A stretch of 64,000 nt of DNA from Candidatus Polarisedimenticolaceae bacterium (GTDB lineage Bacteria; Acidobacteriota; Polarisedimenticolia; Polarisedimenticolales; DASRJG01): the NCBI GenBank assembly GCA_036275915.1, contig DASUCV010000004.1, forward strand, positions 662,204 to 726,203, given 5' to 3'. The notes under the pieces are model-generated. The model ran no database searches. It saw nothing but the letters and a program-made list of their open reading frames with translations, and was not told where the DNA came from. A program made the position numbers and the translations under genes. Positions 52,219 through 62,216 of this stretch are shown here, one piece after another; positions within the stretch are counted from its first letter, which is position 1, and each line of letters opens with the position of its first letter.

Positions 52219-52244
52219 TATTGTCCTAATGTCCTAGGACAATA
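52219..52244. promoter_or_regulatory. Putative YtrA-type GntR operator overlapping the operon promoter
   Basis: Perfect IR TATTGTCCTA-N6-TAGGACAATA. Overlaps minus-strand -10 TATATT (52241-46); -35 TTGACC at 52263-68. Confidence 0.8.
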
Positions 52245-52264
52245 TACAAGCCTTTTGCAGCCGG

Positions 52265-54157
52265 TCAAGCGGTCTTGAAGAAATTTTCGGCGGCAGTCAG
52301 TTCCCGAACGACGGGGAAGGGCGGAAGGGACTTGAGGAAGGTCTTCCCGTAGGACTTCGTGAGCAGGCGAGGGTCGAGGACGGCGAGGATTCCCCGGTCG
52401 CCGCGGCTGCGGAGCAAACGGCCGAGACCCTGCTTCAGGTCGAGGACCGCCATCGGCGTCTGGTACTCGGCGAAGGGGTTCCCCTCGTTCTCGCGGATGC
52501 GCTCGATGCGCGCGGCGACGAGCGGGTCGGTCGGCACGTCGAACGGCAGCTTGTCGATGACGACGAGCGAGAGCGCCTCGCCCGGGACGTCGACGCCGTG
52601 CCAGAAGGAGCTCGTGCCGAGGAGGACGGCGCGCGGCGTCGCCTTGAAGCGCTCGACGAGGGCGACCTTGCTCCCCTCCCCCTGGACGAGGAGGGGCCAC
52701 CGGCCGGAACGCTGGAGGTGCTCGGTCGCGCGCGCGAGCGCCTGGTGGCTCGTGAAGAGGAGGAACGCGCGTCCGTCGGTGAGGGCGAGCAGCGATTCGA
52801 TCTCGGCCATCGCGCGTGCGAAGAACGCGGGCTCGCGCGGCTCCGGCATCGCCTTCGGCAGGTAGAGCACCGCCTGGCGCGCATGGTCGAACGGCGACTC
52901 GACCACCATGGTTTCCACGTCGCTCAAGCCGAGCCGCTTCTTGAAGAAGTCGAACGAGCCGCCGACGGAGAGCGTCGCCGACGTGAGCACGCAGGCGTGG
53001 AGACGATCGAAGAGCGATGTCTCGAGAAGGTTGCCGACCTCGATCGGCGCCGCCGAGAGGATCACGTTGCCGCGCCCCCTCGCCTCCATGCCGTAGACGT
53101 AGCCGGGCGCGTCGCGCTTGATCACGCCGGCGATCGTGTCCTTGAGGTCGCGGGCGCGCTGCTCGACCGCCTCGAACTTCGGATCGGCGACGTCGTCGAG
53201 CGCCCGAGAGAGCGTGAGCCACTCCTCGTCGAGATCGACGCCGCCGCGGCTCGGCGGCTCGAAGCGCTGGCGCCCCGAGGCGCTTCTCAGCGCATCCTTG
53301 ACCGGCGCGAAGAAGGTCCGCGCCGCGTCGCGGAGAACCGACGCTCCGCCTCCGCCCTTCGCCGGCCCGCCTGACTTCGCCGCCGCCCGTTCGACGTCGC
53401 GCGCCAGCTCCTCGATCTGGTTCGCCGACACGGTCGTGCCGAAGTAGAGCGTGGCGATCTCCTCGAGCTGATGCGCCTCGTCGAAGATGACCGTGTCGTA
53501 GTCGGGGAGCACCGCGCCGTACGCGCTCCGCACGGCGAGATCGGCGAAGAAGAGATGGTGGTTGACGACGACGATCTGCGCCTGCTGCGCGCGGCGCTTC
53601 ACCTTCGTCAGCCAGCACATCTCGTATTCGGGGCACTTCGAGCCGGTGCAGGTGTCCGCGCGCGCGTTGATGTCGCGCCAGAAGCGGAGATCGTCGGGAA
53701 GCTCGGCGACCTCCGCCCGGTCGCCGCTGTCGGTCGTCCGGCTCCACGCCGCGAGCACCGGCAGGAAGCGGCGCTCGTCCCGGACCTCGAGGAGGGGCTC
53801 GTGCGCGAACGCGTCGAAGCGCGTCCGGCAAAGGTAGTTGTCGCGGCCCTTCATGAGGCACGCGGAGACCTTGAGCCCCGCGCGTTCGCTCAGGAACGGC
53901 AAATCCTTCCGGAAGATCTGGTCCTGGAGGTTCCGCGTCCCGGTCGAGACGACGATCCGCCGCCCCGACGCGATCGCCGGGATGAGATACGCGAACGTCT
54001 TCCCCGTACCGGTTCCCGCCTCGACCATGAGACGGCCGCCGTCCTCGAGGATGCGGGCGACCGCCTGGGCCATCTTCGACTGGCCTTCCCGGTGCTCGTA
54101 CGTCGGGTGCACGGAGGCGAGGCCGCCTCCGGGCGCGAAGAAGTCGGACGACGCCAT
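52265..54157 (-). CDS. DinG/YoaA-family ATP-dependent DNA helicase
   Basis: EAGTGTGKT, KGRDNYLC and further Fe-S Cys, VVVNHHL, FDEAH, SATL, QGLGRLLR. Confidence 0.94.
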   Translation of the reverse strand: MASSDFFAPGGGLASVHPTYEHREGQSKMAQAVARILEDGGRLMVEAGTGTGKTFAYLIPAIASGRRIVVSTGTRNLQDQIFRKDLPFLSERAGLKVSACLMKGRDNYLCRTRFDAFAHEPLLEVRDERRFLPVLAAWSRTTDSGDRAEVAELPDDLRFWRDINARADTCTGSKCPEYEMCWLTKVKRRAQQAQIVVVNHHLFFADLAVRSAYGAVLPDYDTVIFDEAHQLEEIATLYFGTTVSANQIEELARDVERAAAKSGGPAKGGGGASVLRDAARTFFAPVKDALRSASGRQRFEPPSRGGVDLDEEWLTLSRALDDVADPKFEAVEQRARDLKDTIAGVIKRDAPGYVYGMEARGRGNVILSAAPIEVGNLLETSLFDRLHACVLTSATLSVGGSFDFFKKRLGLSDVETMVVESPFDHARQAVLYLPKAMPEPREPAFFARAMAEIESLLALTDGRAFLLFTSHQALARATEHLQRSGRWPLLVQGEGSKVALVERFKATPRAVLLGTSSFWHGVDVPGEALSLVVIDKLPFDVPTDPLVAARIERIRENEGNPFAEYQTPMAVLDLKQGLGRLLRSRGDRGILAVLDPRLLTKSYGKTFLKSLPPFPVVRELTAAENFFKTA

Positions 54158-55425
54158 CAGGCCCGCGCGGGAAGCCGCGACGCGTAGAGCGGGAACCGGG
54201 CGGTGAGCGCCTCGACCTCGCCGGCGAGATGTTTGAGCGCCGCCTCGTCGTCCCTCGCGTCGAGCGCTCGGGCGATCAACGCGGCAATCTGGTCCATCTC
54301 GGGCTCGCCCATCCCGCGTGTCGTCACGGCGGCGGTCCCGATCCGGATCCCGCTCGCGACCATCGGCGAGTTCGTGTCGAACGGGATCGTGTTCTTGTTG
54401 ACGGTGATCGCGGCCTTCTCGAGCGCCTTCTCGGCGACCTTGCCGGTGATCGACCTCGAGAAGACGTCCATCAGGAAGAGGTGGTTGTCGGTGCCGCCGG
54501 AGACGAGTCGGTAACCGTGCGAGGCGACTGCCGCGGCGAGACGCGCAGCGTTCGCGACGACGCGCCCGATGTAGACCTTGAACGACGGATCGAGCGCCTC
54601 GCCGAAGGCGACCGCCTTCGCGGCGACGATGTGGACGAGCGGGCCGCCCTGGATGCCGGGGAAGACGACCTTGTCCAGCTCCTTGGCGTGCTCCGCTTTG
54701 CAGAGGACGAGGCCGGCGCGCGGTCCGCGCAGAGTCTTATGCGTCGTCGTGGTGACGAAGTCGCAGTGCGGGACCGGGCTCGGGTGGTGGCCCGTCGCGA
54801 CGAGCCCCGCGATGTGCGCCATGTCGGCCATGACCTTGGCGCCGTGCGCGTGCGCGATCGCGGCGATCTTGTCGAAGTGGATCGTCCGCGGGTACGCGGA
54901 GGCGCCGCAGACGATCAGCTTCGGCTTGTGCTCCTTGGCAAGCTCATCGAGCCGGTCGTAGTCGAGCCGTTCGTCCTCCTTGCGGACGCCGTAGGCGACG
55001 AACTTGTAGAGCTTTCCCGAGAGGTTGAGCGGATGGCCGTGCGTCAGGTGGCCGCCGTGGGAGAGGTCCATGCCGAGCACCGTGTCCCCCGGCTGGAGCG
55101 CCGTCATGTAAACCGCCTGGTTCGCCTGGCTGCCGGAGTGCGGTTGTACGTTCGCGTGCTCCGCGCCGAAGAGCTGCTTCGCGCGATCGATCGCGAGCCG
55201 CTCGACGACGTCGGTGAACTCGCAGCCGCCGTAGTAGCGCCGCCCGGGATATCCCTCGGCGTACTTGTTCGTGAAGACCGAGCCCGCGGCCTCGAGCACC
55301 GCTTCGCTCACGAAGTTCTCGGAGGCGATGAGCTCGAGCCCCTTCGACTGGCGCTCGGTCTCGTGGAGGATCGCGTCGGCGACGGCGGGGTCTTGCGCGC
55401 GGAGGCTCTTCGTCGGGTCGCTCAT
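54157..55425 (-). CDS. glyA: Serine hydroxymethyltransferase
   Basis: [40 protein letters not shown] 55425. Confidence 0.98.
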
Positions 55426-55865
55426 GGGGTCTCCTGAAGCTGGGCGATCTTCTCCGTTCGACGAGCGTGCCGGCCGCCCTCGAAGGTGTGGGTGAGGAAC
55501 GCCTCGAGCGTGTCTTCCATGACGCCCATCCCCGAGACGCGTCCGCCGAGGCAGATGATGTTGGCGTCGTTGTGCTGGCGCGCGACGCGGCCTTGATAAG
55601 GGTCGGTGCAGTGCGCGGCGCGGATCCCGCGGACTTTGTTCGCGGCGATCGACATGCCGATGCCCGTGCCGCAGATGAGGAGGCCGAGCTCCGCGCGGCC
55701 CTGGACGACCGCGCGCGCCACGCGTGCCGCGAAGTCCGGGTAATCGACCGACGCGAGCCCGTCGGTGCCGTGATCGTCGACCTCGTGACCGTGCGCCACG
55801 AGCCACTTCTTGAGCTGCTCTTTCGCTTCGAACCCCGCGTGATCGGCCCCCGCCGCGATCTTCAT
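55422..55865 (-). CDS. rpiB: Ribose-5-phosphate isomerase B
   Basis: [34 protein letters not shown]. Confidence 0.97.
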
Positions 55866-57211
55866 GGCTGGTCCTCCCTCCGGAGCTGCTCCAGGCTCGG
55901 GATCGGCACGGCTCCCATCTCGGCGAGCCGTGCGTGCTCCGCCAGAGCGTAACCGTCGGTCATCGCGGCGAGGTGATCGGCCAGAAGCCGCGTGTAACGG
56001 TGGTCCGCTCGATATGCCTTGGCCTCCCGCTCCCGGTGCTCGCGGGACAGGTCCCTAAAGTACCTCACGCCGGCGGTTTCCTTCATCCGGAAGAGGACGT
56101 GGTCGTCCAGGAGCGCAGGGTCGGCGAAGTAGGCGGCGAAGAGGCCGAGGACGACGCGGCGGCCCCGGGCCTCGACCCGTTCGGCTTCCCCGCGGTGGAG
56201 GCGCGCGGTGAGGAACCGTTCGAGCTCCGAGACGAGCGACTCGCCTCCCGCCGGAAGGGCGATCTCCTCGCCCGTCACCGCCTCGTCCCGCTTCTCGCGA
56301 AACGCCTTCGGGCTCGAGATCTTGTGCGCGGTCTTCCACTTGGCGAGGCTCGCCTGCGAGGCCAGGATCGCGCCGGTCACGAGGAGGTGCGTGAGGCCGC
56401 GGTGGATCGCGTTCGCCGCCGCGAATCGGCCGCCGCCGCGCGGGTAGCGCGCACCGAGCTTCCGCTTCAGCTCGCGGATGGCGCCGAGCTTCTCGACCTC
56501 GGCGAGGCCGGCGGTCCCCGCCTGGAGCGCGTCGTCGAGATCGTGGAGCGCCGACGCGAGACGCACCGCGAGGGCGACCACTTGCGCCTCGAAGAGCGGC
56601 GGCATCCCCCAGCGCAATCCCTCGGGAGCGGGCTCTTCCGCGAGCGGAGCGCCCCCCGCCTTCACGATCCCCTCGCGGGTCGCGTCGGTGAGGTTCAGGC
56701 CCGGGTGGCCGTAGCGCTTCTCGAGGAGGTCGACGACGCGTAGCCCCTGCCACGCCGGCGAGAAGCCGCCGCGATCTCCGAGCCCGGGCCCGCCGCGCCC
56801 GTCGCGTCTCCCGGCGAGGAGATCGTCGATCGCCTGGACACCGGCGGGGCCGAACGGAGGCTGGCCGAGATCGTGGCCGAGCGCCGTCGCCTCGACGAGG
56901 TCCTCGTTCAAGCGGAGCGCGCGGCCGATCGTGCGGGCGACCTGCGTGACCTCGAGCGTGTGCGTCAGCCGGTTCCTGCGGTGGTCTTCGTAGGCGGGGA
57001 GGATGCCGGCGATCGCCTTGTGCCGCAGGCGGCGGAAAGCGCGCGAGTAGACGATCCGGTCGCGGTCGCGCTGGTAGGCCGTCCGGTAGTCGAAGGCGCG
57101 CCCGTCGTCCTCGAGAGGGTGGCGGCGCACGCCCTCGGACGACCGGAGCGCATAGGGCGCCAGACGCGCGTCCTCCTCGCGTTCCATCGTCTGACGCATG
57201 CTTTCGGCCAT
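55862..57211 (-). CDS. dgt: dGTP triphosphohydrolase homologue with a degenerate active site
   Basis: [44 protein letters not shown]. Several catalytic positions substituted. Confidence 0.8.
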
Positions 57212-57282
57212 GAAGAGCGGATGCTACACCCCGGCTTGAAAGGGCTCCAAACGGACCCTACGTTTGCAGCGACGGAGGGACC

Positions 57283-57459
57283 ATGCCGATCGTCATCGAC
57301 ACCGATCAGTGCGAGAGCTCGGGCGCGTGCGAGCTGGTCTGTCCCGAGAACGTCATCGAGATCCACGAGGGGCGGCCCGTCATCGTGAACAACCTGGCCT
57401 GCACCTCGTGCTGGAAGTGCGCCGAAGTCTGCATCGCGGGGGCGATCGACGTCGATTGA
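57283..57459 (+). CDS. 58-aa dicluster ferredoxin (CxxSxxCxxxCP plus CxxCxxCxxxC)
   Basis: Manual translation MPIVIDTDQCESSGACELVCPENVIEIHEGRPVIVNNLACTSCWKCAEVCIAGAIDVD*, SD GGAGG. Below the ORF-track size cutoff. Confidence 0.92.
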   Translation: MPIVIDTDQCESSGACELVCPENVIEIHEGRPVIVNNLACTSCWKCAEVCIAGAIDVD

Positions 57460-57475
57460 CTAGAATGCGGTCCTC

Positions 57476-58981
57476 ATGGCCGGCCCCGCCTCCACGATCG
57501 TCACCGAGCTCGAAGCCCAGACCGACCTCGCCAAGGCGCTGATCGCGCGCGCGCAGGCCCGCGGCGCGTTCCTCATCTGGCGCGCGCAGGCCACGAGGGC
57601 GGCGCGCCTTCTCGTGCGCTCCGGGCGCGTCGAGGAAGCGGTCGTCGCCCAGGGCTCCGGCCACGGAGTCCACGCCGTCCTGGACGACGGCCGCAGCGCA
57701 TTCGGAAGCCGCGACGACTTCGGTCCCGAGCCTTCCGCGGCGCTCCTCGACGCGACGATCGACGCCGCCTCCTCCGGCGGCGCGCTCGGGGTCGCCGGCG
57801 GCTCCTTCGCGCCCGACGCCCCGTCGACCGCGCGCGACCTCCCCGCCGGCATCGCCGCCTTCGACGCGCTCGACCTCGACGCCGCGTCGGCGCGTCTCGT
57901 CGCGCTCGAGCGCGAGCTGACGTCGGATCTTCCGGGCGTCACGACGACGCTCGCCTTCCAGGCGGTCCTCGAGGTGTGGCGCATCCTGCGGTCCGACGGC
58001 GCCGACGTGCTCTTCGCGGTCCCGCGCTGCGTCCTGCGGGCGTCGCTGAGCTCCTCGGGCGACGCGCGCCACACCGTCGGCGCCTCGCTCGCCGACCCGA
58101 GCCCACGGATGTTCGACGATCCGGCCGCCGTCGCGACGTTCCTCGCCCGCGCGCGCGCCGCGGGCAGCCTCGCCGCGGCGCTGCCCGACGCGCCGACCCA
58201 TCCCGCGGGCTCGTTCCCGCTCGTCATCGACTACGCGCTCGCCAAGGGGCTGGCGCACGAGGCGTTCGGACACGCATCCGAAGCCGACGGGTTCCGTTCT
58301 TCGGTCCTCGCGCGCGACGGTCGGTTCCGCTCCGGCGACACCGTCGGCCCGGCGCACGTCTCGGTGATCGACGAGCCGGTGCAGGGCGACTTCGCGTGGC
58401 AGCCGTACTCGGCGACCGGGTCACCCCGCCGCCGCGCGACGATCGTCGATCATGGACGCTTGAGGGACGCGCTCACCGACGCGTGGTCCGCGCGCGGCGC
58501 CGGAACGGCGCTCACCGGCGCCGACCGCGCCGAGTCGTTCCGCTCCGCACCGCTTCCCCGCATGTCGAACATCCGGATCGAGCTCGACGATCCGCTTCCC
58601 GCCCCGGGGGCCTTCGAGGATTACTCCGCCGAGCGCGTGCGCGATCTCCTCGGGGACGCGGGAATCTTCTCGCGCCATCGCCGCGTCGCGTTCCTCTCCG
58701 GCTACGGCGGCGGTCAGGTCAACCCGCCGACCGGCGACTTCGTCTTCAACTGCAAGGCGATCTACGCGCTCGGCCCGGACGAGGTCGTCCTGCACAAGCC
58801 CGCCATCTTCTCCGGGTCGATGTTCGGTGCTCTCGGCGCGGTCCGCGAAGGCTTCGGCCCGCTCAAGCTCGACGCGATCGGGAGCTGCGGCAAGTGGGGC
58901 CAGAGCGTCCCCTCCTCCGGGGGCAGCCACTACTTCCTCGTTCTCGATCCCGATCCGGGCGTGCGCCTCGGCGGACGGTGA
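57476..58981 (+). CDS. tldD: TldD-family metalloprotease
   Basis: HEAFGHASEAD, RAESF..PLPRMSN, GGQV, CGKWGQ. Confidence 0.88.
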   Translation: MAGPASTIVTELEAQTDLAKALIARAQARGAFLIWRAQATRAARLLVRSGRVEEAVVAQGSGHGVHAVLDDGRSAFGSRDDFGPEPSAALLDATIDAASSGGALGVAGGSFAPDAPSTARDLPAGIAAFDALDLDAASARLVALERELTSDLPGVTTTLAFQAVLEVWRILRSDGADVLFAVPRCVLRASLSSSGDARHTVGASLADPSPRMFDDPAAVATFLARARAAGSLAAALPDAPTHPAGSFPLVIDYALAKGLAHEAFGHASEADGFRSSVLARDGRFRSGDTVGPAHVSVIDEPVQGDFAWQPYSATGSPRRRATIVDHGRLRDALTDAWSARGAGTALTGADRAESFRSAPLPRMSNIRIELDDPLPAPGAFEDYSAERVRDLLGDAGIFSRHRRVAFLSGYGGGQVNPPTGDFVFNCKAIYALGPDEVVLHKPAIFSGSMFGALGAVREGFGPLKLDAIGSCGKWGQSVPSSGGSHYFLVLDPDPGVRLGGR

Positions 58982-58982
58982 C

Positions 58983-60293
58983 ATGGAGGTCGCGGCGCTC
59001 CTCACGGCCCTCCGCACGGCGCGCCCTCAGGGCCGCGCGATTGCCGGCTTCAACTTCGACATCACGACGATTCGCCGGCTCGTCATCGGCACGAAGGACC
59101 GGGAGACCGGCGGGCCGCACGCGCCCGTGAGCCTCTCCGACTCGCTTAACGCCCGCTTCAAGCTCGTGTGGGACGACGGCCGCGTGAGCCGCGGCGTCAT
59201 GGAGCGCCGCGCGATCGAGTCCGACCCGCATCCGGTCCTTGCATCGGCGCTGGCTGCCGCCTACGACGACCCCGACGCGCGGACCATCCTCGGACCGTCG
59301 GCGTTTCCCGACGTGCCGACCCTCGACCCCGGCACGGTGAAGCTCGCCGAGGGTGCGATCGACCCGTTCGTCCCTCGGCTCGAGGCCATCCGCGCGCGCC
59401 TCGCGGATCATGGCCTCAAGACGTGGAGCGGCTCGATGCAGGCCGCGCACGGGAATACGCGCCTCCTCACCTCCGCCGGGCTCGACGTCGAGGCGGAGGG
59501 AACGTCGACCTCGTGGAGCGTGAGCTTCGACGGCGAGAGCGTCGGCGCGGGGAAATCGGGGCGACGCCTCGAGCCGTTCGAGGAGTTCGCCCTGCGCCTC
59601 GATCGCCTCGTCACGCTCGTCCTCGCCCTGCGCGGCACCGCACCGGCGCGGCCGGGGGGCGTCGTTCCGGTTCTGTTCCATCCCGGCGTCGTCGAGGACT
59701 ACGTGCTCGCCGTCCTCCTCCACAACTTGGACGGCGAGCAGGTCGCGCACGGCACCGGCGCGTTCACGCGCGCGCAGTTCGGCTCCGGCTTCGCGTCGTT
59801 ACGACCGGACCTCACGCTGCGGACCGACCCGCTCGTCCCGTTCGCCAGCGGCGCCTACCGGTTCACGCGCGAAGGCGTGCCCGCAGCACCGGTCACGCTG
59901 ATCGACCGCGGCCGTCTCGCGACCCCGATGCTCGACCTCAAGTACGCGCGCCGCCTCGGCCTTCCGCCGAACGCACCTCCCGCGGCGATGGACACGCTCT
60001 TCTTCGAGGGCGCGTTGGCGATCGACGAGCCGGCGGCGCTCGGCGCCGCGGCCGGCGGCGTGCTCGTCCTCGGCGTCCTCGGCGTGCACACGCAGGACTT
60101 CACGAGCGGCGACTTCTCGCTCTCGGCCCCGCAGTCGCTCGCGATCGGGGCGAACGGTTTCGAAGGCCGCCTCCGCGGCACCGTCTCCGGGAATCTCTTC
60201 GAGCTGCTCCGCTCCGACGATCTCGCCTTCGTCCGCTTCCCCGGGGAGACGACCCCGGGGCTCCTCGTGCGGTGCCGCTTCGACGCTCAGTGA
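58983..60293 (+). CDS. TldE/PmbA-family protein
   Basis: ATG 58983. DPL...GAYRFTREG, LGVHTQDFTSGDFSL, SGNLFELL. No HExxH; follows tldD. Confidence 0.85.
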   Translation: MEVAALLTALRTARPQGRAIAGFNFDITTIRRLVIGTKDRETGGPHAPVSLSDSLNARFKLVWDDGRVSRGVMERRAIESDPHPVLASALAAAYDDPDARTILGPSAFPDVPTLDPGTVKLAEGAIDPFVPRLEAIRARLADHGLKTWSGSMQAAHGNTRLLTSAGLDVEAEGTSTSWSVSFDGESVGAGKSGRRLEPFEEFALRLDRLVTLVLALRGTAPARPGGVVPVLFHPGVVEDYVLAVLLHNLDGEQVAHGTGAFTRAQFGSGFASLRPDLTLRTDPLVPFASGAYRFTREGVPAAPVTLIDRGRLATPMLDLKYARRLGLPPNAPPAAMDTLFFEGALAIDEPAALGAAAGGVLVLGVLGVHTQDFTSGDFSLSAPQSLAIGANGFEGRLRGTVSGNLFELLRSDDLAFVRFPGETTPGLLVRCRFDAQ

Positions 60294-61996
60294 TTCGGGC
60301 AGACGCGCTGCTCGCCGGTGCAGCCGAAGGCCAAGGTCAACACCGCGAGGTCGTCGCCGTCGAGGCACTTGTCGCCGTTGTAATCGAGGCGCCCCCACGG
60401 CTCGCCGGCCGGGTCCTGCGAGCATGCGCCGAACGAGCGGCCCATCGTCGCCAAGGTGATGCCGTCGACGCGGGACTGCCCGGCGAGGGCGAATCGGGAG
60501 CACACCGCGTCGTCCTTCACGCCGTTGCAGTCGTCGTCGACGCCGTCGCAGAGGTCGAGCGCGCCGGGGTGGATCGCCGGGTTGGTGTCGTTGCAGTCGA
60601 GCGGGCATCCTGTTGCGGGAGCTCGGCCGGCGCCGTCGCCGTCGACGTCGATGCAGCTGTCGCACGCGTCGCCATAACCGTCGTGATCGATGTCGGTCTG
60701 GGCCGGGTTCGGTGTCCCCGGGCAGTTGTCGCAGGCGCTGCCGAGCCCGTCGCCGTCGTCGTCGATCTGATCGTTGTTCTGGACCCCCGGACAGTCGTCG
60801 ATCCGGTCGACGACGCCGTCCTGATCGACATCGGCGCAGACGCCGGTATCGATCTCGGCCGCGCGCGAGGCGGCCGGCGGGTTGTGGAATCGGAGGCATT
60901 CGAACGCTTGGAGCCCGAGGTTGTCCCCCGTGAGGTACGGATACATGACGTAGTTCGAGAGCGAGGCGTGCTCGAGCCCGATATTGTGACCGAACTCGTG
61001 CAGCCAGAGCATCGACTCGTGCTCGGGGATCCGCACGAGGATCATGCCGAAGCCGTTGACGAGCGAGCAGCCGATGACGTTCGTCCCCCCGACACCGTCG
61101 CACCAGTTGATGATCCGCACGATCTTGATGCGCTGCGTGCCGGCTTTCAGAACCGCCTCGAGCTGGCTCTCGTCGTTGATGATGTCGTTGCCGTCGGTGA
61201 GCGTCCCGAACGTTCCGCCCGGGGCGCCCAGGTGCAGCTCGCTGCAGCAGGCGACGTCGTTGTAGAAATCGGCCCTGCCGGAGATGAGCGCCGCCTCGCC
61301 GAGGAGCTGCTTCGCGACGGCGTCGCGCATCCCATACTGCGGGCTGATCGCGACCGCCGCGTGGTTGGCGTAGGTCAGGTTCGCGGCGACGCCGCGGGGC
61401 GACGTGTCCTCGACATAGGCGACCGCCGCCGGGTTCGCCGGCGCCGGCGAGGCGAGCGCCTTCCCGTCGAGCGGTGCCGGGAACGACGAGGGCTTCAAGG
61501 TGGCACCCGGCGCGAGCGCGGCCAGGCTGCGCTCGGCTTCACGGCCGAGCAGCTCCCGGGTCTCGTCGTCGTACGCGCCGGTCACCGCCGGGTCGCCGCC
61601 GGCGATCGCCGCGAGCGCGGACGCGGCCGCCGGATCCCCCGCCTCGGCGATGAGGCCCAGGGCGCGCGGCACGAGGAGGACCGCCCGGTCGTCGGGGGGA
61701 GCGGCGGGATCGCCGACGGGCTGGGCCAGAAAGCCCGCGAGTCCGGAGGTCGCCGTCTTCGAGCGGAGGTGGCCGAGGAACGCCACGACGTTGTCCCGCC
61801 TTGGAAAACCGGGATCTTGAAGGAGCTCGAGGAGCTCCGGAACTCCCTCGGGCCCGACCTCCCGAGCGGCGATCTCATCGGTCATCCCGTGGATGTAGGT
61901 CACGAGCGCGGCGGCGCGGACGCGGTCCCCGGCGGCGGCCGGCGGAGCGGTCACGAGAGCCGTCAAGAGCACGGCGGCCGGAACGAGCTTGCCCAC
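60287..61996 (-). CDS. Secreted metzincin metalloprotease with TSP3-type Ca repeats and a dockerin-like tail
   Basis: Signal peptide from GTG 61996; HEFGHNIGLEH...VMYP; DNCP...NP.Q.D.D.DG.GDACD; DCND...IHPGA...CDGVDDDCNG; DYNGD..LDGDDL...FG. Confidence 0.82.
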   Translation of the reverse strand: MGKLVPAAVLLTALVTAPPAAAGDRVRAAALVTYIHGMTDEIAAREVGPEGVPELLELLQDPGFPRRDNVVAFLGHLRSKTATSGLAGFLAQPVGDPAAPPDDRAVLLVPRALGLIAEAGDPAAASALAAIAGGDPAVTGAYDDETRELLGREAERSLAALAPGATLKPSSFPAPLDGKALASPAPANPAAVAYVEDTSPRGVAANLTYANHAAVAISPQYGMRDAVAKQLLGEAALISGRADFYNDVACCSELHLGAPGGTFGTLTDGNDIINDESQLEAVLKAGTQRIKIVRIINWCDGVGGTNVIGCSLVNGFGMILVRIPEHESMLWLHEFGHNIGLEHASLSNYVMYPYLTGDNLGLQAFECLRFHNPPAASRAAEIDTGVCADVDQDGVVDRIDDCPGVQNNDQIDDDGDGLGSACDNCPGTPNPAQTDIDHDGYGDACDSCIDVDGDGAGRAPATGCPLDCNDTNPAIHPGALDLCDGVDDDCNGVKDDAVCSRFALAGQSRVDGITLATMGRSFGACSQDPAGEPWGRLDYNGDKCLDGDDLAVLTLAFGCTGEQRVCPNH

Positions 61997-62078
61997 GGGT
62001 CCCCCACGATGATTGCCGAAAGGGTACGCGGCAACGCGCCTGCCGTCGATACCGGAATGGTGGGTTATCGTGGCGCCC

Positions 62079-62216
62079 ATGGACGAAAAGACGCGCGCCG
62101 AGGCCAGCGTCCGGACCTGCCCCAACTGCGGGGCGGAGCTTCAGGAGAAAAAGTGCAAGCTCGTCTGCCCGCAGCCGGCCTGCGGGTACTACGTGAGCTG
62201 CGCGGACTTCTACTGA
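62079..62216 (+). CDS. 45-aa Cys-rich CPxCG zinc-finger microprotein
   Basis: MDEKTRAEASVRTCPNCGAELQEKKCKLVCPQPACGYYVSCADFY. Confidence 0.78.
   Translation: MDEKTRAEASVRTCPNCGAELQEKKCKLVCPQPACGYYVSCADFY

Follow-up and report, generated by a model that had tools for sequence, protein, structure and literature searches.

The window analyzed here is a 64,000-nucleotide stretch of the genome of a Candidatus Polarisedimenticolaceae bacterium (GCA_036275915.1, contig DASUCV010000004.1, positions 662,204 to 726,203). At 55862..57211 on its minus strand lies a gene, here called dgt2, whose 449-amino acid (aa) product, P0001, has the fold of a Dgt, i.e., a deoxynucleoside triphosphate (dNTP) triphosphohydrolase, and a degenerate active site. 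We found that dgt2 very probably encodes a pseudoenzyme: essential catalytic residues have been replaced in an enzyme fold, and the protein is under selection. P0001 would behave as the allosteric half of a Dgt does. It is quite possible, and we propose it tentatively, that bacterial Dgts have an old, separable, non-catalytic function and that Acidobacteriota isolated it on two or more occasions, perhaps six, by inactivating the Dgt2 subfamily wherever another dNTPase was present, leaving a nucleotide-sensing pseudo-dNTPase subunit for control of the dNTP pool. If this is true, dead Dgt2 is a separation-of-function allele of the Dgt/SAMHD1 family that arose in nature.

In E. coli Dgt, the metal ligands are His69, His117, Asp118 and Asp268, and the substitutions H126A, E129A and Y272A each abolish hydrolysis (PMC6511015); these roles agree with those that the initial annotation, made from the letters of the window, had assigned to D268, H126, E129 and Y272. 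Residue numbering was checked on the E. coli dgt sequence. The altered segments of P0001 are as follows.

57005..57019, minus strand: KAIAG in place of KTQVF; the deoxyribose-reading loop (E. coli Q53/V54) is altered
56837..56875, minus strand: H113-V125; the HD pair is kept and the His-Glu dyad is replaced by P122 and V125
56744..56764, minus strand: FSPAWQG; the His and Asn of the E. coli N186 region are replaced
56540..56566, minus strand: V216-D224; D268 is replaced by Val, D/E269 by Arg and Y272 by Ser, and D276 is kept

At the catalytic positions, P0001 carries P122 for H126, V125 for E129, V216 for D268 and S220 for Y272 (E. coli Dgt numbering). Further replacements are R217 for D269, I67 for Q53, A68 for V54, Q117 for N121, A153 for N186 and A185 for Y212, while H69/H117/D118 (H84, H113 and D114), R81, K211 (K184) and D276 (D224) are kept. 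The full-length dGTPase (deoxyguanosine triphosphatase) homologue that the initial annotation had described at this place was confirmed, with an unbroken frame and all the motifs that it had quoted. From its sequence, P0001 is predicted with high confidence to be without dNTP triphosphohydrolase activity.

We then compared P0001 with its best 120 database clusters (65-91% identity; source names Acidobacteriota), giving 121 sequences at the level of the order. The catalytic His126 was present in 0/121 of them, as against 42/42 canonical dgt copies of the class, and Tyr272, N186 and the His-Glu dyad were likewise each found in 0/121. Position 121 was Gln in 121/121 and position 269 was Arg in 120/121. 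The losses common to all or nearly all of the order are H126, N121/His, N186, His/Tyr212, Y272 and the change of E/D269 to Arg. The earlier claim that catalytic residues had been lost held for P0001, in which H126, E129, D268 and Y272 are all replaced; in the order, some of the losses are partial, and D268 survives in 54/121 sequences, E129 in 72/121, Q53 in 42/121 and all four metal ligands in 54/121. Two supposed signs of inactivation had to be withdrawn. The Tyr-to-Gln change at position 272 predates the inactivation, being present in 120/120 clusters related to P0123, an intact-looking Dgt2; these clusters, several of which are named Thermoanaerobaculia by their sources, have the four metal ligands in 120/120 and the His-Glu dyad in 119/120. 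Similarly, DHLAAMTD, previously listed among the altered motifs, is a trait of the subfamily because His stands there in 99% of the same 120 intact-looking Dgt2.

The gene is maintained. When all 119 class genomes were searched, an orthologue of dgt2 was found in 37/39 genomes of the order, and the two without a match were 57% and 83% complete. The orthologues share the losses described above, and the ratio of nonsynonymous to synonymous substitution rates (dN/dS) was 0.056-0.252 in 15/15 dgt2 pairs, compared with 0.045-0.195 in 8 canonical pairs, indicating purifying selection and bearing out the initial annotation, which had read a maintained rather than a decaying gene. These ratios come from the NG86 method only, as the maximum likelihood and YN00 methods were saturated or failed (YN00 in 12/14 comparisons; maximum likelihood with two collapsed fits, in other genes). 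Between the window genome (G000) and G078, the dN of dgt2 was 0.175, within the 0.132-0.189 of glyA, dgt1, yoaA and rpiB. Over the 121 sequences, 88/449 positions were invariant, and the median position of the tree showed 8 parsimony changes. Q117, R217 and A66 are new residues that have become fixed. The kept residues H84, H113 and D114 showed 0-1 changes, whereas A68, V125, P152, A153, A185, V216, S220 and H339 showed 24-44 changes each. The positions lining the old active-site pocket lie in the 75th-94th percentile of change, among the fastest in the protein. A conserved C-terminal tail is specific to the order.

55874..55915, minus strand: C-terminal tail GAVPIPSxEQLRRE, conserved and order-specific

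By profile and fold, P0001 is a Dgt homologue, and it is not a member of the active family. It scored above the TIGR01353 Dgt cut-off (177.9 vs 152.35), and its PF01966 (HD) and PF13286 (HD_assoc) domains were both above their gathering scores; atlas searches gave only Dgt/HD_assoc clusters. An AlphaFold2 model from a 100-sequence alignment reached a pLDDT (predicted local distance difference test) of 89 and a pTM (predicted template modelling score) of 0.91. Its best structural match was the Thermus thermophilus dNTP triphosphohydrolase 2DQB (Z 43.8, root-mean-square deviation 2.1, 361 aligned residues, 37% identity; Foldseek template modelling scores 0.74/0.90). P0001 resembles 2DQB and the Dgt family in whole-chain fold and in the RDRDR, RLTH and HD motifs. 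In contrast, it lacks the His-Glu dyad and the Tyr gate, has three of the four metal ligands, and carries an extra (Y/F)xRD insert, an N-terminal EGRxFDY loop and a C-terminal tail. We placed it outside the active Dgt family because three defining features, when tested, were lacking. P0001 also fell below every Dgt equivalog cut-off, the best being NF002326 (228.3 vs 390); the intact-looking P0123 fails this model as well (301.7 vs 390), while the active paralogue of the window genome passes (495.6 vs 390). Against the anti-phage dGTPase model NF041026, P0001 scored 129.8, below the cut-off of 400, and no defence-island context or CloB-like gene was seen among the dgt2 neighbours examined (rpiB, glyA, yoaA, ferredoxin, tldD/pmbA). 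The PADLOC dGTPase model matched all three Dgt types tried, and the canonical type scored best. Dead dgt2 genes pose an annotation problem, as they exceed the TIGR01353 cut-off, are labelled dGTPase by their sources and match the PADLOC dGTPase model.

The divergent copies form a clade of their own, Dgt2, apart from the canonical dgt copies, and Dgt2 is an ancient Acidobacteriota subfamily. Its marks are Gln in place of Tyr272, the N-terminal EGRxFDY loop and the (Y/F)xRD insert. Sampling 401 genomes across the phylum revealed Dgt2 in more families that lie outside the class. A recent duplication of the genome's own dgt was rejected on account of the separate clades and the 36% identity. Intact-looking Dgt2, often the sole dgt of its genome, represents an unstudied active-site type; Gln in place of the essential Tyr was absent from all five solved sequences with alignments displayed. 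P0123 (L005:4977-6332) and P0124-P0242 have Ile at the base-stacking aromatic position along with Gln for Tyr272. Related 'DEIAQ' proteins were common among 50%-identity representatives, and many are 600-740 aa long with the match beginning 150-260 residues in.

The state of Dgt2 was then set against the presence of other dgt genes in 60 representative Dgt2 rows, which were picked to cover families and are fewer than all loci. Dgt2 was degenerate in 35/38 genomes with a second dgt, and in these 35 the second dgt was of the intact Tyr type (G145 was counted among them, its second dgt being cut by a contig end). The three exceptions, with intact Dgt2 beside a second copy, were G114, G116 and G160. 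In G160, the intact Dgt2 is accompanied by another Gln-type Dgt on a long branch, a short Dgt of the Tyr type and a distant HD protein (L199, L226, L248 and L252). Where no other dgt was found, Dgt2 was intact in 20/22 genomes; for 10/20, a repeat search was used to recheck that no other dgt is present, and the other 10 rest on the 401-genome sample. In family f10 (e.g., G020 and G021), neither dgt copy was found (0/29 genomes), and five f10 genomes checked (L317-L321) showed only a distant HD protein, with 0/5 above the TIGR01353 cut-off. None of the closed genomes sampled carries the dead copy by itself, which, together with f10 showing neither copy, speaks for a link between dead Dgt2 and the paralogue.

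On a tree built without the active-site columns, parsimony gave six changes of state. G139 was excluded from all trees and Dgt2 counts, being present only in the overall 401-genome tally. A single origin of all dead copies was rejected by the approximately unbiased (AU) test (p=6e-5 with 32 representative rows and the active-site columns out; 1.3e-4 with a faster search). When all dead copies minus family f19, a group chosen after the tree was seen, were constrained to one clade, the AU test did not reject this with the long f11 row (p=0.087) and rejected it without that row (p=0.012); the main clade together with f20/f38 as one clade was not rejected (p=0.25). Two origins of dead Dgt2 are therefore firm, and parsimony gives six; any number above two is uncertain because the outcome hangs on the one long branch of f11. 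The change of GHTPFGH to GQPPFGx, mostly also with DEIAQ to DRxA, occurs in f20/f38 as well as in the order of the window, and GQPPFG is also seen in f30 and f11; the loci compared with the order were L209, L211, L214, L215, L220 and L206. Convergence of the GQPPFG-type replacements is unproven, since a shared origin was not rejected.

We next considered what the dead protein has retained. The interface pocket for deoxyadenosine triphosphate (dATP) in L. blandensis Dgt is described as R28, R37, F40, V74, S78 and R307 (PMC9257424), and the p3diT pocket of CloA as R29, R34, D37, R38, F41, N75 and R314 (PMC12265719). As reported there, L. blandensis R28A/R37A lose activation only (PMC9257424), and CloA R29A/R34A/R38A remains active (PMC12265719). 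These residues map to R43, R48, D51, R52, Y55, Q90, T94 and R271 of P0001; this mapping is based on alignments and on the residues listed at the interface of a heterodimer model, with R271 placed by helix register. The pocket segments and one further region of note are as follows.

57047..57085, minus strand: R43-Y55, first half of the pocket (R43, R48, D51, R52, Y55; L. blandensis R28, R37, F40; CloA R29, R34, D37, R38, F41), each P0001 residue invariant in 121/121
56930..56944, minus strand: Q90 and T94, the base-reading half (E. coli Q75/Y79; L. blandensis V74/S78; CloA N75), in the modelled interface
56387..56401, minus strand: R271-H275; R271 is the likely equivalent of L. blandensis R307 and CloA R314 by helix register
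56003..56122, minus strand: Dgt2-specific region that includes L373, R375 and a (Y/F)xRD motif (R386, D387) absent from canonical Dgt; the region is not part of the modelled dimer face

All eight pocket positions (8/8) showed 0-1 parsimony changes each, compared with the median of 8. Among 36 degenerate Dgt2 from 10 lineage groups, R43 is kept in 36, R48 in 35, D51 in 36, R52 in 36, His or Tyr at position 55 in 36, Q90 in 30, T94 in 32, and R271 and H275 in 36 each; the residues of the catalytic site other than the defining ones (P0001 numbering) are retained as H117 in 2, H152 in 2, H185 in 6, N153 in 7 and T66 in 11. The invariance of the pocket arginines points to a ligand because the homologues, as published, need those arginines for neither fold nor catalysis. 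From this conservation, R43/R48/D51/R52/Y55 with Q90/T94/R271 probably bind a deoxynucleotide, most likely a pyrimidine dNTP. A pyrimidine dNTP is favored because an Arg stands where L. blandensis Dgt has R28, because the Gln is E. coli-like, and because the operon (rpiB, glyA and, in some lineages, a deoxycytidine monophosphate (dCMP) deaminase gene) feeds ribose and thymidylate supply. P0001 resembles the L. blandensis dATP site and the CloA p3diT site in its interface pocket residues; it differs in that Q90/T94 stand at the base-reading positions in place of V74/S78 of L. blandensis Dgt, and in that the pocket of L. blandensis Dgt and CloA controls their own active site, whereas the active site of P0001 is gone.

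Outside the pocket, R29, R38, L373, R375, R386 and D387 were present in 36/36 degenerate Dgt2, a conservation at least as high as that in 23 intact ones; in a loose alignment, this Dgt2-specific set sits roughly where R433/R442 of E. coli Dgt reach the neighboring subunit. The net charge of Dgt2 is more positive than that of other Dgts (median +1.6 vs -2.6 per 100 aa). Position 369 (D369-H371, window 56099-56107) is Asp or Glu in 36/36 degenerate vs 7/23 intact Dgt2 and aligns with S418, which binds phosphate in the second site of CloA, that for deoxythymidine triphosphate (dTTP). Judging by this alignment, residue 369 could block the second site or mimic its occupancy.

The second dgt of the window genome (G000:C17) lies on another contig, is 36% identical to dgt2 and has all catalytic residues; the intact paralogue to which the initial annotation had pointed thus exists. 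The second copies from 31 genomes of the order kept the catalytic motifs as far as the displayed motifs reach, and the canonical dgt of G111 (L309) is split over two frames. We modelled Dgt2 with the active paralogue and obtained a score of 0.85 against 0.00 for the best of 3 controls; the pass mark of the test is reached by 116/157 solved complexes and 2/215 mismatched pairs. The runs agreed in at least 87% of contacts, with a partner pLDDT of at least 82. The modelled interface is the usual dimer face of the family and contains R43, D51, Y55, Q90, T94 and R271; invariant residues made up 25/43 of it, compared with 63/406 elsewhere.

Taken as a whole, the following mechanism is possible, and we advance it with some doubt: dead Dgt2 would act as a dNTP-binding tuner of the active paralogue. 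Its conserved pocket at the dimer interface would take up an effector nucleotide, and the protein would enter mixed oligomers with the active dGTPase, whose gene lies elsewhere in the genome. Because the two subunits of a mixed dimer would each contribute one half of every pocket, the dead one would change the choice of nucleotide that activates the live enzyme, and it would also halve the number of active sites. The altered activation and the halved sites would together set a ceiling on dNTP breakdown. The initial annotation had suggested a nucleotide sensor or a regulatory subunit of an active paralogue, and this suggestion is backed indirectly by the invariant pocket and the modelled heterodimer.

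Several observations weigh against this mechanism. Passing the model test indicates feasibility and not binding because solved Dgt homodimers are alike; 24/41 interface residues are identical between the two paralogues, and a Dgt2 homodimer would use the same face. Active Dgts conserve the same pocket residues, some of which may be structural here. R29, R38 and the (Y/F)xRD insert are not part of the modelled interface, and the conservation of residues off that face hints at another contact. No clear co-adapted surface was seen on the active paralogue, Dgt1: of 166 positions conserved in 52 Dgt1 from Dgt2-bearing genomes, 158 hold in 13 Dgt1 from genomes where Dgt2 was not found. Class genomes without detected Dgt2 manage without it, the dgt2 and active dgt genes are unlinked, and the live dgt is a short 'type B' in G001, G002, G073, G129, G138 and G145. 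A degenerate Dgt2 without a second dgt was found in G065 (81% complete) and G201 (96% complete, 500 contigs). Finally, the co-occurrence of dead Dgt2 with a second dgt was not significant once kinship was allowed for (3 independent pairs on well-supported branches, p=1).

Alternatively, dead Dgt2 may have a job of its own, which is a substantial though doubtful possibility. Ancestral Dgt2 would have combined hydrolysis with non-catalytic binding of a nucleotide, of a single-stranded DNA (ssDNA) end or of a protein, for example YoaA or GlyA; catalysis would decay where hydrolysis is covered by another dNTPase, and the homo-oligomer would keep the binding role and leave the paralogue untouched. 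Decay does recur beside unrelated Dgt types, the six residues found in all 36 degenerate copies lie off the heterodimer face, and the more positive charge of Dgt2 is consistent with such a role. Nevertheless, no partner was identified, each of glyA, rpiB and yoaA is absent at some loci, and yoaA adjoins dgt2 in only 1/16 loci outside the class. That the dead copy stands alone in no closed genome of the sample, with neither copy in f10, also speaks against it, and by the criterion given in PMC9257424 the pocket is nearer the dNTP type than the ssDNA type. A new chemistry is unlikely. In this case, P0001 would be a different metal-dependent phosphohydrolase using H84/H113/D114, R81, K184 and D224 with the new Q117 and R217, and most of this set is indeed kept (H84 121/121, H113 120/121, D114 120/121, R81 121/121, K184 118/121) or fixed (Q117 121/121 and R217 120/121, both also in families f20/f38). 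However, with 24 changes, the position of the fourth ligand varies between A, S, V, E, N and I, and few positions of the protein evolve faster than those lining the pocket. In degenerate Dgt2 of other lineages, the HD Asp is lost in 7/36 and His69 in 2/36, so no common catalytic set remains.

It is very unlikely that the dead copy is a decoy that soaks up a phage inhibitor of Dgt similar to T7 Gp1.2 and spares the live enzyme. The rim of the old active site is fast-evolving, and Gp1.2 is reported to bind at the Dgt active site (PMC9478638). On the other hand, dgt2 sits in a fixed housekeeping operon, its tree is mostly vertical, it is retained almost universally in the order, its dN is like that of glyA, and the anti-phage dGTPase cut-off is far off. 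No Dgt inhibitor is known for these bacteria (no search for one was made), which also counts against a decoy. We give next to no credence to a decaying gene kept only as the carrier of the operon promoter and of translational coupling. dgt2 is first in its operon, with a promoter-like element upstream and an overlap with rpiB, as such a carrier would be; this reading was refuted by dN/dS at most 0.25 in 15/15 pairs, by the invariant positions and by a dN like that of the operon neighbors. A pseudogene or frameshift was rejected on the open frames throughout the order and the same low dN/dS.

The nearest published ideas are the pseudo-hydrolase domain of RelA and the recurrent subfunctionalization of SPS1. 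The HD domain of RelA is described as an inactive pseudo-hydrolase that bacterial nucleotide metabolism has retained for use as a regulatory switch (PMC8012599). Dead Dgt2 is alike in being a predicted inactive hydrolase, which would likewise be kept for regulation; however, the RelA domain acts in cis on the fused synthetase, whereas Dgt2 belongs to the Dgt branch and is a complete protein by itself. SAMHD1 belongs to the same superfamily (Z about 17 against the P0001 model) and has a dNTPase-independent role, but it is catalytically competent, whereas Dgt2 shed its catalytic half by evolution. For SPS1/SPS2, recurrent and independent loss of catalysis is reported where another gene has come to cover it, while an older second function persists (PMC4561486). 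That enzyme is an unrelated animal one, its second function was found by complementation whereas that of Dgt2 is inferred, and the covering gene is a fresh duplicate there and an old paralogue here. Pseudoenzymes are known as a kind, and no description of a naturally dead Dgt was found in the literature outside subscription journals and supplements; likewise, no passage with 'inactive', 'degenerate' or 'Acidobacter' occurs in the available main text of the 2026 dGTPase survey PMC13519002. The purpose of bacterial Dgts 'remains debated' (PMC12186491). Intact and dead Dgt2 side by side amount to evolution's own separation-of-function experiment, and because they coexist, a non-hydrolytic Dgt role is directly testable.

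The genes and elements around dgt2 are as follows.

55422..55865, minus strand: rpiB (TIGR01120 score 184.1 vs cut-off 138.65)
54157..55425, minus strand: glyA, serine hydroxymethyltransferase (NF000586, 626 vs 335)
52265..54157, minus strand: yoaA, DinG-family helicase (NF053712, 722.8 vs 680)
57221..57250, minus strand: promoter-like element upstream of dgt2, with TAGCAT 9 nucleotides (nt) before the ATG and TTGGAG 18 nt further up
57283..57459, plus strand: 58-aa 4Fe-4S ferredoxin, divergent from dgt2, with tldD/pmbA-like genes next

The stop codon of dgt2 and the start codon of rpiB overlap as ATGA at 55862-55865, confirming the coupling noted at the outset. Overlaps are also found at rpiB/glyA and glyA/yoaA, and dgt2 is the first gene of the dgt2-rpiB-glyA-yoaA run, the upstream boundary of which is marked by the divergent ferredoxin gene. 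Of the rpiB-glyA-dinG operon in the initial annotation, rpiB and glyA stood and dinG did not: the product of the third gene is above the YoaA equivalog cut-off (722.8 vs 680) and below that of DinG (446.9 vs 789). Within 75 nt upstream of dgt2, the TAGCAT of this putative promoter occurred in 21/34 loci of the order; the element was not picked up by a consensus promoter scan. A pattern like an NrdR box had no match in the window genome at up to 3 mismatches.

Downstream of dgt2, glyA was present in 31/33 loci of the order, 17/24 other loci of the class and 12/16 loci outside the class, and full-length rpiB, present in 19/33 loci of the order, was the least constant neighbor. In three genomes outside the class, a dCMP deaminase gene lies downstream of dgt2, and in three, a gene of the Mur-ligase fold, probably folC-like, lies upstream; these neighbors suggest that the theme of the operon is nucleotide precursor supply. 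The neighboring genes single out no partner for Dgt2. In G083, rpiB is reduced to a 34-residue remnant (L085 / L146). HolC (chi), the E. coli partner of YoaA, was not found in the window genome, which is 98% complete. The divergent ferredoxin and tldD-/pmbA-like genes (window 57283-60293) adjoin dgt2 across much of the order. At the yoaA end, a sigma-70-like promoter, TTGACC-16-TATATT, stands on the minus strand at window 52239-52268, and the genes past it are a T2SSG-like gene, a GntR regulator and an ATP-binding cassette (ABC) transporter pair. The 612-aa protein encoded at window 60287-62125 weakly matched a zinc metallopeptidase and carries a metal-binding motif of the MopE type.

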